In this document: piece by piece, positions 55,701-58,700 of the stretch
How the letters are laid out: every line of letters begins with the position of its first letter
How positions within the stretch are numbered: position 1 is the stretch's first letter
Source: Escherichia coli O157:H7
GTDB lineage: Bacteria; Pseudomonadota; Gammaproteobacteria; Enterobacterales; Enterobacteriaceae
Reading direction: 5' to 3' (one strand)
Assembly: GCF_013167455.1 (NCBI RefSeq)
Contig: NZ_CP038328.1
Length of the DNA: 64,000 bases
Made by a program: the position numbers

Positions 55701-58700
55701 CGTAAGTTCATCCAGCGGTACGCGCGCTGTTTCAACACCTGACTGCAAGGTATGACGCCATTGCGCATTACGTTCGGCGTTACGCATGATCAACATCAGC
55801 GGTTTTTTGCCTGCCGCGACGGATTCATGCCAGGTCTGAAGATTGCGTTCGTTCATCCAGGAGTAACCATTAATCGAACCGCCGGCTCCGGAACCAAAGG
55901 CCAGACAATCGGCACCTTGTTTAATCAGCAGGTTATAGAGATTGCGTTCGCGTGTGGTACGGCCCCAGTGGCTGTTACTGATGCAGCGCCAACCGGCATC
56001 GTCCATAAAATCACATCCTTGCAGATAAAGATCGCGACGTTCTGCCGGTGAGGGTACGGTAGTACGCCCATTTTCCACGGCCTTGCCCAGCGGTGTATTG
56101 GACAGGACATTGAGCGCATAGAGATCGACGCCGTCGAGACCGATATCGCGGGCAATAGCCAGATCTTCTCCCCAGGTTTGCGCATCCTGACCCGGCAGGC
56201 CAAACAGCAGGTCACAGACCACCGCAGCACGGTCACGTTTGACCAGGCTTTCCATAAACGCAATAGCGGTTGGGCCATCCGAGGTGCGGGCCATTTTCTT
56301 GCGGATTTTGCTGTTAAACGACTGGATACCAATTGAGAAGCGGTTTGCTCCTGCATCAAGGCAAGCATCGATTCGCTCAGCGTCAAAATTCAATACCCGT
56401 CCTTCGATAGTGATTTCACAATCAGGGGCCAGTGGCAGCTTTTCTCGTAATGTGGTGATGATTCTGGCCAAATCGTGTGCCGAAAGTGCGGAAGGCGTAC
56501 CGCCACCGAAATAGACCGCGTGGATGGGGGCAGACTGATGCAATACGCTGTCCGCTTCCATTTCTATTTCACGAATCAGGGCGTCGGTATAATGAGCACA
56601 CGCATCTTCATTAAAACGGTTCTGATAAAAACCACAAAACGTGCAGTGTGTCGCACAAAAAGGAATGTGTAGGTAAACCAGTCGCTTACGAGGTGATGCC
56701 GTTTGATTGATCATCTCTTGCCAGGTCTGTGCCAGTTGCTCTTTGGCAACCGGAATGGCTCCACGAAACGGCATCATGGCGCGCCTGTCTTTAAATGGCT
56801 GATCACCGTCTAAAGCAAAATGTGGCGTGAGATCCAGGGTGTTATTTGCGTTCATTCGTCTGATTTAAATCCATTTATTGCGGCCAAAGCTGCTGGTGTA
56901 AAGACTCAACGACATCAGCAATACGCGGACCCATTCCCAGAATCAGGTTTTGATCAACGGTGATAATGCGCTGGTTTTTCCATGCGGCAGTGTGGGTAAT
57001 TCCAGCAATAGAACGTAGCCGATTAATATCGCCATCGACCATTTGTGAGGTTACGACAATCACTTCTGGATTAGCCGCAATCAGTGATTCTGCACTGTAG
57101 CTTTTGTACTGCTGGTGGGTAGCGACGTTTTCTGCTCCGGCAAGCGAAAGAATGGCGTCCGCGACGCTGCCTTTACCGGCAACTTGTGGCGCACTTCCGC
57201 CTGCGGAGAGAATAAACATGGCTTTAACCGGGGCTTTTTTGGTCGCCACGTTTTGCTGTACTCGCTCCAGGCGTTGGCTGATTTGTGTCACCAGCGCCTC
57301 GCCTTGTTCAGGAACCTGTAGCGTTTTTGCCAGTTGGCGAATGTTGGCGTACATCTGCTGAAGGGTGGCAGGCACACGCGGCAGGGTGACGACGTTGACT
57401 TTCTGCGCTCGTAGTTGGTCGAGCACAATTTGTGGCCCGGCATCCTGCCAGGTAATTACGCTATCCGGGCGAAGTGACAAAATGCCTTCGCTGCTGAGTT
57501 GTTTCCAGTAGCCAATATGCGGCAGTTTGGCGGTTTCTGGTGGATAAGATGTCGTTTCATCGACACCAACCACGCGTTCGCCAGCGCCCATCGCGTAGAT
57601 TAGCTCCGTCAGCGATCCTCCTGCGACCACGATACGTTCGGCAGCCGTTACGCTAAAAGCCCAGCTAAGAGCCAGTACTGCCGTAAACAATTTTTTACGT
57701 TTTACTGCGGTCTTCGCGGCAGAGGCCACGGCTGAAATACATAACGTCAGTGGGGAAAAAAGAAACGGCCTGGTGATGATCCTTGGCATAATATGAGAAC
57801 TCTTATCAAATTGAGAATGATCATGATTATCATTTGAGTTATATATGAAATACAACCGTCGATTCAATACGCAAGGCGTTACAAGCGTATTTATTTTTGA
57901 TTTTTATCAAGATGCTTCGTCAGCTAACGTTCTTGTTTCCGACTAAATTTCATCGCGGGAAAAAGCTGAGAACCCAGAGATATCGAGGCTTGCAGAGCAA
58001 AGAGAAGAAAAAATTATCACTGTTAACGACAAAATTTAGTGATGAGGCATGGGGGGATAACCATAAAAACAAGGTGGTTTACAGGGCGCAGGATAGGTTT
58101 CATAACCCCCTGTTTATTGTGTTAATGGTGGTTAAAAAAAAACTTGATCATAAAAAATTGATCGATAATAATTCTCATTATCACGTTTGCATTTAACAAA
58201 ACACGACCATATGGATAACAAAACCATAGCATTTGCAAGGGATAACGCACAGCTCTCTTCACTCCTGATGGGGCATATCGTTTTGCCTGACAAAGAGGGC
58301 GTGCTTTTGCGTAATTGCCGAGTTATCAGGCAATTTCATGGGATATAAACGCTTGTAAACTCACCCGGCGAATATTATCGCTCTGAATTTTAAATAAATT
58401 TATTTTTCGCCAGCCACCCCGGTATTAACCCAGGCAGCCAGCATTTTTTATTTTCCTCATGGAGAATCGCTATGTCACGTCCGCAATTTACCTCGTTGCG
58501 TTTGAGTTTATTGGCCTTAGCTGTTTCTGCCACCTTGCCAACGTTTGCTTTTGCTACTGAAACCATGACCGTTACGGCAACGGGGAATGCCCGTAGTTCC
58601 TTCGAAGCGCCTATGATGGTCAGCGTCATCGACACTTCCGCTCCTGAAAATCAAACGGCTACTTCAGCCACCGATCTGCTGCGTCATGTTCCTGGAATTA

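Follow-up and report, generated by a model that had tools for sequence, protein, structure and literature searches.

The chuA locus and its Fur-controlled promoter

The window, the whole 64,000-nucleotide stretch of DNA analysed here, matches E. coli O157:H7 genomes, including that of EDL933, with 100% identity. It contains the heme receptor gene chuA, the divergent chuT (shuT) operon and an intergenic region with the following promoter features:

58472–60454, + strand: chuA coding sequence (660 aa), encoding a TonB-dependent heme receptor (open reading frame list and RefSeq annotation of the identical sequence)
58164–58182, no strand assigned: chuA Fur box GATAATAATTCTCATTATC, at −308 to −290 from the chuA ATG (58472), overlapping the −10 element and the start site
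58144–58172, + strand: chuA promoter-like site from the promoter scan, with −35 TTGATC (58144–58149), a 17-nt spacer and −10 AATAAT (58167–58172)
58181–58471, + strand: chuA 5′ leader of 291 nt, from the published dRNA-seq start (PMC9002310), 100% identical to that of O157:H7 EDL933
57813–57831, − strand: chuT/shuT Fur box, a 16/19 consensus match corresponding to +1 to +19 of the shuT transcript

Comparison with the 19-bp inverted-repeat consensus GATAATGATAATCATTATC revealed that the chuA Fur box matches at 16 of 19 positions on the + strand and 17 of 19 on the − strand. Among all sites in the 64 kb with at most three mismatches, 58164–58182 and 57813–57831 are the only two, against 0.01 expected. 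The original prediction, which placed the best Fur box about 290 nt upstream of the chuA ATG and deduced a long Fur-controlled leader, agrees with the dRNA-seq of EHEC Sakai, where the chuA 5′UTR is 291 nt long with a single start at −291 (PMC9002310). A 5′UTR of this length places +1 at 58181, within the Fur box, which thus covers both the −10 element and the published start. As a cross-check of coordinates, the published U273 corresponds to position 58453 of the window and to the −19 U of Kouse et al. For shuA/chuA, both the binding of Fur and repression by iron have been published, as cited in the literature on the thermometer. It is hardly credible that a proximal promoter with a short leader drives most chuA transcription and that the distal Fur box serves another purpose: we found no support for such a promoter, the scan of the + strand from 58173 to the ATG brought up nothing promoter-like (and hence no candidate start within about 50 nt of the start codon), the single dRNA-seq start contradicts it, and RT-PCR in Shigella indicates a leader of 278–342 nt.

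On the divergent side, the chuT ATG lies at 57789, 42 nt downstream of the annotated shuT start at 57831. The shuT start has been mapped and Fur binding at +1 to +19 demonstrated by EMSA (PMC5458455). The second Fur-like site predicted on the chuT side is therefore real, although the predicted interval, 57815–57834, lies 2–3 nt off the best 19-mer. According to published work on this exact sequence or on its Shigella and UPEC counterparts, Fur bound at 58164–58182 in the presence of iron covers the −10 element and start site and blocks chuA transcription, and in the absence of iron a transcript with the 291-nt leader is made from 58181; the site at 57813–57831 plays an equivalent role for the chuT operon. 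Altogether, the region is very probably the native chuA control region of E. coli O157:H7, with layered control by Fur, the 291-nt leader and a FourU thermometer.

A FourU hairpin at the chuA ribosome-binding site

The 3′ end of the leader contains two overlapping elements:

58443–58474, + strand: shuA/chuA FourU RNA thermometer (Rfam RF02597), with stem 58450–58456 (AUUUUCC) / 58461–58467 (GGAGAAU) and loop UCAU
58461–58464, + strand: Shine-Dalgarno sequence GGAG, read directly, invariant in 73 of 73 leaders

The sequence cagcattttttattttcctcatGGAGaatcgctATG at 58439–58474 spans the U-tract and the Shine-Dalgarno (SD) sequence. The RF02597 covariance model scored 60.1 bits, above its gathering threshold of 58, over model positions 1–32 of 32 with 32 of 32 identical; the match encloses the chuA SD and ends on the ATG (58472–58474). 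The U-rich stretch that had been suspected of occluding the SD is accordingly the published FourU thermometer (PMC3660397), and the original remark that such an element had been described for shuA/chuA is borne out by that report and by RF02597 membership. In the hairpin, U58451–U58454 pair with A58466, A58465, G58464 and A58463, respectively, and C58455 and C58456 with G58462 and G58461. All sequence contexts that were folded yield this hairpin as the minimum-energy structure (z = −2.83 against shuffled sequences). Its modelled free energy weakens from −8.4 kcal/mol at 25 °C to −6.1 at 37 °C and −5.1 at 42 °C and reaches zero near 69 °C.

Nearest-neighbour folding leaves the SD paired from 25 to 45 °C, with a probability of being unpaired of at most ~0.03; equilibrium folding of this kind cannot model the competition of the ribosome for the SD. 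Since the folds show no switch up to 45 °C, the case for thermosensing comes from published reporter and mutant data. For shuA, UPEC chuA and EHEC chuA, translation rises from 25 to 37 °C with an unchanged mRNA level (PMC3660397, PMC9002310), and the substitution U273A gives a 2.6-fold increase at 25 °C (PMC9002310). A 2021 correction of PMC3660397 concerned spliced and mis-assembled blots, its Fig. 1 being inconclusive according to the editor; the key thermometer result was later reproduced independently (PMC9002310). The predicted minimum energies of mutants track the published phenotypes: compared to −8.4/−6.1 kcal/mol at 25/37 °C for the wild type, they are −11.2/−8.7 for U58453C, −4.2/−2.5 for U58453A and −4.1/−1.7 for C58455A. 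From the published experiments on this exact sequence or its Shigella and UPEC counterparts, the 7-bp hairpin (58450–58456/58461–58467) masks the SD at about 25 °C and opens sufficiently for translation at 37 °C. The combination of Fur promoter, long leader and FourU hairpin proposed for chuA is thus correct, already published and not new; it makes the chuA leader a textbook case of layered virulence-gene control by iron (Fur) and host temperature (RNA thermometer).

The chuA element shares its 32-nt sequence, structure, position and gene with RF02597 (shuA_thermo) and is a member of that family with no difference. The RF02597 threshold is reached in Escherichia only; Pseudocitrobacter loci score 41 and 31 bits, and the element was undetected in other genera. 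Similar to the FourU elements of Salmonella agsA (RF01795) and Yersinia lcrF, the chuA hairpin is short, has four U residues paired with SD purines and increases translation at 37 °C. It differs from both in that its U residues pair with AGAA of GGAGAA while two C residues pair with GG, and in that a second U tract permits a longer alternative helix. A search of 56500–59500 with RF01795, the family of the founding agsA element, gave no match at E values up to 10, which does not exclude chuA from the FourU class because the class is defined by structure. The shuT 5′UTR (Wei et al. 2017) lies at the same locus and follows the same iron and temperature logic as chuA; by contrast, its leader is 42 nt long and its thermometer is not of the FourU type. 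The fold of the shuT 5′UTR was indistinguishable from those of shuffled sequences (z = 0.14). A hammerhead HH9 match at 57661–57736 (18 bits, gathering threshold 52) was rejected as chance.

Origin of the long leader

Upstream of the hairpin, the leader contains the following features:

58211–58348, + strand: non-conserved 45-codon open reading frame (open reading frame list), located where hemP starts elsewhere, with start context TATGGATAAC
58247–58309, + strand: stem-loop followed by CUUUUG, from the terminator scan (−24.6 kcal/mol, z = −1.77), coinciding with the published Term-seq 3′ end at +129 (PMC9002310)
58357–58397, + strand: leader segment ending in AAATAA, which aligns with the last hemP codon and stop (nhmmer 3′ block; PMC9002310)

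Comparison with related loci revealed an intact hemP gene (Pfam PF10636, ~1e-17) in this interval at 73 of 77 loci, namely all the non-Escherichia ones. The hemP-hemR(-hemSTUV) operons of Yersinia and other Enterobacterales share with chuA the promoter, the spacer before the receptor and the distance from Fur box to receptor ATG, which is −308 at chuA against a median of −309. Both flanks are homologous to hemP loci by nhmmer, with 21.5 bits for the 5′ block and 59.5 bits for the 3′ block; within the former, the chuA promoter-like site is the counterpart of the hemP promoter region in other genera. The two arrangements differ in that hemP is intact in hemP-hemR operons and unrecognisable at chuA, and in that the transporter genes are downstream in the former and divergent at chu, where ChuT is only 35–44% identical to their HemT.

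The start context of the 58211–58348 frame aligns with hemP start codons, and the frame is altered or broken in other Escherichia. Its 45-aa product matched no Pfam family, membership of PF10636 being judged by a score of at least 25 bits and the C-terminal ...GKLILTK motif. Rather than a gene, the frame is probably a relic of hemP, at most in a positional sense, and it does not belong to PF10636. A profile of 68 HemP sequences gave nothing significant against six frames of five Escherichia leaders (E ~3), local DNA alignments of 58265–58391 and 58214–58391 with hemP coding DNA scored no better than shuffled sequences, and Citrobacter hemP DNA had no match in any complete E. coli genome. With the protein and DNA tests null, the case for a hemP relic is made from the flanks and the spacing only, from which we infer that the chuA leader is probably the remnant of an ancestral hemP gene; a decayed hemP would give an evolutionary reason for the unusual length of the leader.

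Alternatively, the leader might be a purpose-built regulatory platform with Rho loading, Hfq and small RNA sites, its hemP-interval length reflecting coincidence or replacement, which we regard as unlikely yet deserving of weight. Truncations of the leader alter expression 2- to 9-fold, Rho termination near +271 requires +177 to +217, and an Hfq peak covers +160 to +200 (all PMC9002310); moreover, the middle of the leader has no detectable similarity to hemP. A search for the ops element (RfaH) with up to three mismatches found none in the chuA leader. Conservation in the leader is confined to the promoter and the last 80 nt. Of the 2236 complete E. coli genomes that carry chu, 2201 have at least 99% identity over the 65 nt surrounding the hairpin; over the whole leader, 1230 of them are just 80–90% identical. 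Against a purpose-built platform, the mid-leader diverges at about the rate of chuA third codon positions (76–78% against 76–82% identity), that is, at synonymous-site speed, and in one Escherichia lineage it tolerates an ERIC-like insertion of ~125 nt. In addition, the flanks are collinear with hemP loci down to the hemP start context and the AAATAA stop, and the Fur box-ATG distance falls within 1 nt of the hemP-locus median.

Helices, motifs and trans-acting factors in the last 80 nucleotides

Three further elements overlap or adjoin the hairpin:

58433–58476, + strand: alternative extended helix from the folds, built from GGCA/UGUC, AGC/GCU and AUUUUUUAU/AUGGAGAAU, which sequesters the SD together with the UG of the AUG
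58409–58442, + strand: bipartite C-rich motif GCCAGCC...CAGCCAGC, similar to an HmuP-responsive element (HPRE), whose G-C pairs separated by tandem C·A mismatches can form a hairpin
58434–58447, + strand: predicted CyaR site GCAGCCAGCAUUUU, paired with CyaR nt 20–33 in the duplex prediction, its position agreeing with the published site

The extended helix is homologous to the minimum-energy helix in other genera, and the receptor SD is sequestered in hemP-hemR spacers too. In the alignment of 73 sequences, 91% of cells pair in the extended helix, compared to 42–55% with slid partners; pair 61:93 is C-G in 51 sequences, U-A in seven and A-U in one. Covariation for the leader helices is thin: as most columns are invariant, the helices are supported mainly by the pairing percentage against slid controls, together with a few double changes. 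When applied to the MAFFT alignment, RNAalifold recovered the C-rich hairpin alone and missed the SD helix owing to misaligned loop indels; the named structures were tested instead. We infer that an older SD/AUG-sequestering helix of the hemP-hemR spacer persists in Escherichia as the thermometer hairpin. Sequestration of the ribosome-binding site would then be older than Escherichia and widespread in hemP-hemR spacers.

A single copy of the C-rich motif is present in the 64 kb (0.01 expected), and it ends 30 nt before the ATG. It is found at the same place in at least 62 loci, 58 of them outside Escherichia, is nearly invariant in the 73 leaders, and is carried without any change by 2199 of 2235 E. 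coli genomes. Its likeness to an HPRE was judged against the C. violaceum HPRE as quoted in PMC9131926. On the evidence of that quotation, the known HPREs (Amarelle et al. 2019; C. violaceum chuR, de Lima et al. 2022) are likewise C-rich, with GCCAGCC / CAGCCAGC, and lie in the 5′UTR ~25–60 nt before the start of a heme TonB-dependent receptor. According to PMC9131926, motifs of this type mediate HmuP/ChuP-dependent post-transcriptional activation of heme receptors. The chuA motif differs in that the adjacent HemP-family gene has probably decayed.

E. coli retains one intact copy of the family, ydiE/hemP beside aroH (PF10636, 55.9 bits), present in 5422 of 5426 genomes; it was located by aroH synteny because ydiE is too diverged at the DNA level. 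The HPRE-like motif therefore co-occurs with hemP in cis at every non-Escherichia locus and in trans in E. coli. YdiE is a conserved member of the Fur regulon in E. coli, described as of unknown function, and our search of the literature on ydiE acting on chuA found no experiment. The existence of an intact, Fur-regulated hemP elsewhere in the genome suggests a candidate regulator that might act in trans.

Published inputs on the chuA leader also include RyhB/Esr41, at the ribosome-binding site, and CyaR, which activates chuA from a site ~15 nt 5′ of the hairpin; this activation depends neither on the FourU hairpin nor on U273A (PMC9002310). Duplex prediction with the CyaR sequence, verified by Rfam RF00112, placed the site on the 5′ arm of the extended helix and overlapping the C-rich motif. 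With the whole leader as target, the CyaR duplex was an unrealistic 80 nt long; the site given here comes from a prediction restricted to the seed region of CyaR and the final 80 nt of the leader.

We tentatively propose that the last 80 nt form a composite element from the hemP-hemR operon, comprising the HPRE-like motif and a nested SD/AUG helix, on which YdiE may act in trans as a heme-responsive activator of chuA, and in which CyaR would open the extended helix and spare the FourU hairpin; this possibility is doubtful as a whole. Opening of the extended helix only, with the FourU hairpin intact, would explain why activation by CyaR is independent of U273A. If the proposal is true, YdiE/HemP could gain a function and the CyaR activation of chuA could be explained; these side results, together with the leader origin and the older helix, could matter modestly.

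The same elements admit another explanation of the hairpin, namely that the SD-sequestering structure mainly docks and gates trans regulators (a HemP/HmuP-type protein via the C-rich motif, CyaR, RyhB/Esr41), the temperature response being a by-product of a marginally stable helix. This would be consistent with the retention of helix and C-rich motif across the hemP-hemR spacers of over 20 genera, of which many are environmental, with the HPRE-type activation and the FourU-independent action of CyaR described above, and with the absence of opening at 37 °C in the model. It would also fit Y. enterocolitica hemR1, where a homologous FourU-like hairpin is predicted yet no thermoregulation was seen (PMC6158557). 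We nevertheless consider it improbable as the main role in chuA and favour the thermometer, as a 32-nt fragment that excludes the C-rich motif is enough to place gfp under 25/37 °C regulation, and point mutations in the 7-bp stem move expression as predicted, in the full-length leader as well as in the short construct.

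The chuT-chuA region and its Fur sites

The interval region 57600-58700 lies between two divergent genes, chuT and chuA, the latter encoding a TonB-dependent heme receptor. Many E. coli O157:H7 genomes match positions 57700-58600 with 100% identity, and the locus is present in 2236 of 5426 complete E. coli genomes.

Features of the chuT-chuA region
57789, − strand: annotated start of chuT
58144-58172: promoter-like −35/−10 pair (TTGATC, 17 nt, AATAAT), overlapping the Fur box at 58164-58182
58164-58182: chuA Fur box GATAATAATTCTCATTATC, −308 to −290 relative to the ATG
58472-60454, + strand: chuA, with chuS next after it

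A search of the whole 64 kb with the Fur consensus, allowing up to three mismatches, revealed just two sites, 58164-58182 and 57813-57831, with 0.01 expected. The former is the Fur box that the original prediction had placed far upstream of the chuA ATG. The predicted long 5′ UTR also agrees with published data, as the EHEC chuA start determined by dRNA-seq gives a 5′ UTR of 291 nt (Sy and Tree 2022, PMC9002310); the published +1 corresponds to 58181, within the Fur box. Scanning the + strand up to the chuA ATG revealed no promoter-like site besides 58144-58172. The site at 57813-57831, matching the second Fur-like site predicted on the chuT side to within 2-3 nt, is exactly the published shuT site at +1 to +19 (Wei et al. 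2017, PMC5458455). This 19-mer, which departs from the consensus at three positions, was bound by Fur in EMSA; the shuT start site was mapped 42 nt before the ATG, at window position 57831.

A second RNA thermometer has been published for the 42-nt chuT leader (57787-57831, − strand), whose predicted fold is no stabler than shuffled sequences (z = 0.14). A weak match to Hammerhead HH9 inside chuT (57661-57736, − strand) is almost certainly due to chance, with 18 bits against a gathering score of 52.

The FourU hairpin and published control of the chuA leader

The U-rich string beside the Shine-Dalgarno (SD) sequence, located at 58439-58474, had been read as a candidate FourU-type thermometer. 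Both the observation and its interpretation are correct and already known in full, since the same sequence is the subject of three experimental papers and of a curated Rfam family. The match to Rfam RF02597 ("shuA/chuA 5′ UTR thermoregulator") spans 58443-58474, scores 60.1 bits against a gathering score of 58 and is identical to the consensus at 32 of 32 positions; the temperature response is documented by published reporter work (PMC3660397, PMC9002310). Among the leaders compared, the threshold of this model was reached in Escherichia only.

Thermometer stem
58450-58456 with 58461-58467: AUUUUCC paired with GGAGAAU, loop UCAU

Kouse et al. (2013, PMC3660397), working with Shigella shuA and a 293-nt UPEC chuA leader, found a 32-nt element sufficient for post-transcriptional regulation between 25 and 37 °C, which is shifted by stem mutations. 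A 2021 correction to that paper concerns blots that were spliced or mis-assembled; in the editor's judgement the gfp-fusion results stand and Fig 1 is inconclusive. The hairpin effect was reproduced by Sy and Tree (2022, PMC9002310), who saw a 2.6-fold increase with U273A at 25 °C. U273 corresponds to window position 58453 and to the −19 U of Kouse et al., so the numbering of both papers is consistent. In the same study, CyaR activated chuA from a site lying ~15 nt 5′ of the hairpin, Rho terminated transcription near +271 in a manner requiring +177 to +217, and Hfq peaks were seen over the ribosome-binding site as well as at +160 to +200 (PMC9002310).

Whether folded as 32 nt, 101 nt, 120 nt or the full leader, the sequence is predicted to adopt the FourU hairpin in its minimum-energy structure; the z-score of the hairpin against shuffles is −2.83. 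The predicted effects of mutations, with U58453C stabilizing and U58453A and C58455A destabilizing the hairpin, agree in direction with the published ones. Upon folding at 20-45 °C, as originally proposed, the same hairpin persists with the SD bases paired and no switch is seen; its energy is −8.4 kcal/mol at 25 °C and −6.1 kcal/mol at 37 °C, reaching zero only near 69 °C. Equilibrium folding is thus no proof of thermosensing, nor does it refute it.

Elsewhere in the leader, a long stem-loop at 58247-58309 (−24.6 kcal/mol) is followed by CUUUUG, and its end coincides with a published Term-seq 3′ end (+129); the Term-seq paper found no intrinsic terminator (PMC9002310).

Comparative evidence for a probable hemP origin of the leader

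From sequence comparison we infer a hemP origin of the leader, a motif resembling the HmuP-responsive element (HPRE) under the CyaR site, an alternative extended helix and HemP as a candidate trans-acting factor, which would represent a modest, testable extension of known chuA control.

Scanning one genome per species yielded 80 loci with ChuA relatives of 57-98% identity. Every non-Escherichia locus has an intact hemP in the interval equivalent to the leader, between about −265 and −75 relative to the receptor ATG; these genes have about 52-65 codons, end in ...GKLILTK and match Pfam PF10636 (the hemP/HmuP family) at ~1e-17. The gene order there is hemP-hemR-hemS-hemT, in many loci with aroH just upstream. 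Relative to the receptor ATG, the best Fur box has a median position of −309 in these loci; it lies at −308 in the window and at −307 to −309 in other Escherichia. A DNA profile built from the upstream regions of other genera aligned to the Escherichia leader in two collinear blocks, indicating that both flanks are homologous.

Homologous blocks
58134-58264 (21.5 bits): promoter, Fur box and hemP start context TATGGATAAC
58392-58481 (59.5 bits): AAATAA (58392-58397, aligning to the final hemP codon and its stop codon) to the receptor start

From relic ATG (58211) to relic stop (58397) the leader measures 187 nt, compared with 189 nt for a 62-codon hemP. Protein and DNA comparisons of the leader middle with hemP detected no similarity, and a 45-codon ORF in the middle varies among Escherichia and is not conserved. 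According to the literature, the shu locus is without a hemP homologue. The simplest reading of these comparisons is that the long chuA leader is probably a hemP gene decayed in place.

Of 2236 E. coli genomes, 2201 match the 65 nt around the hairpin with at least 99% identity; in 1230 genomes the whole 381-nt leader falls in the 80-90% identity band. Two divergent E. coli and E. albertii were compared region by region.

Identity to the window
Promoter and Fur box: 91-95%
Leader middle (58191-58391): 76-78%
Last 80 nt of the leader: 92-98%
chuA third codon positions: 76-82%

The leader middle thus evolves about as fast as synonymous sites. In Escherichia sp. MOD1-EC7003, an ERIC-like insertion of ~125 nt follows the equivalent of 58344 in the chuA leader (1249-1373 of its locus, L002). 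This repeat gives a sub-threshold match to Rfam V_AS5, and inserts like it make the hemP-hemR spacer longer in some Buttiauxella loci (L037, L040, L041, L049 and L068).

ChuT (56875-57789) is 35-44% identical to HemT (around 4500-5000 in L003-L081, the loci of other genera), in genera whose receptor is 57-88% identical to ChuA. Given this low identity and the divergent placement of chuT, the Escherichia chu locus looks mosaic.

Conserved 3′ elements and candidate trans-acting factors

An alignment of 73 distinct leader ends revealed a near-invariant motif upstream of the hairpin.

C-rich motif
58409-58442: bipartite, GCCAGCC...CAGCCAGC

It occurs once in the window (0.01 expected), at the same place in at least 62 of the loci fetched, 58 of them non-Escherichia, and as a single, 100% identical copy in 2199 of 2235 chu-positive E. 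coli genomes. The motif is predicted to fold as a hairpin of G-C pairs split by tandem C·A mismatches. Two independent double changes fit this hairpin, G-C to A-U in four Budviciaceae and A·C to G·U in E. albertii; the hairpin positions are otherwise invariant. The motif resembles the HPRE found upstream of heme receptor genes, exemplified in C. violaceum by CCCGCAAGCCAGCCGACAGCCAGCCAGCG at −26 (PMC9131926).

The SD is paired in the predicted minimum-energy fold of all 73 leader ends, fully in 48 and partly in 25. In other genera this fold mostly takes the form of an extended helix, GGCA...AGCGCUUUUC with GGAGAGUUGCU...UGCC, which also covers UG of the start codon. In an unfitted alignment, 91% of the extended-helix cells pair, compared with 42-55% for slid partners, and one pair changes from C-G in 51 sequences to U-A in seven and A-U in one. 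Escherichia has two U tracts, and therefore either the published 7-bp hairpin or the extended-helix homologue can form. For Y. enterocolitica hemR1, a FourU-like hairpin was predicted and thermoregulation was not demonstrable (PMC6158557); thus a conserved helix does not imply conserved thermosensing.

With the CyaR sequence confirmed by its match to Rfam RF00112, nucleotides 20-33 of CyaR are predicted to pair with 58434-58447 (GCAGCCAGCAUUUU), in agreement with the published location. Within the C-rich motif this putative site is the 3′ half, and within the extended helix (58433-58476), which hides the SD and AUG, it is the 5′ arm. The site is clear of the FourU stem, which would fit the published CyaR activation independent of U273A. 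An RfaH ops element was sought in the chuA leader and none was found.

A second candidate factor is encoded elsewhere in the genome. E. coli ydiE is an intact hemP beside aroH, followed directly by selO (1941-2132 in L083, an aroH-hemP-selO locus), at the position where other genera have aroH-hemP-hemR-hemS-hemT; accordingly, E. coli seems to have lost the receptor and transport genes beside aroH by deletion. The ydiE product scores 55.9 bits against PF10636 and shares 51% identity with Citrobacter HemP, and the gene is present in 5422 of 5426 E. coli genomes. As part of the core Fur regulon, ydiE has been described as a gene of unknown function; a literature search found no paper connecting ydiE with chuA. 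YdiE/HemP is a candidate trans-acting factor for the leader motif.

The AU before GGAG is also conserved, creating an upstream AUG (AUGGAG, 58459-58461) that is in frame with the receptor ORF in several genera (in loci such as L026, L030 and L066; MESC...M...) and out of frame in E. coli.
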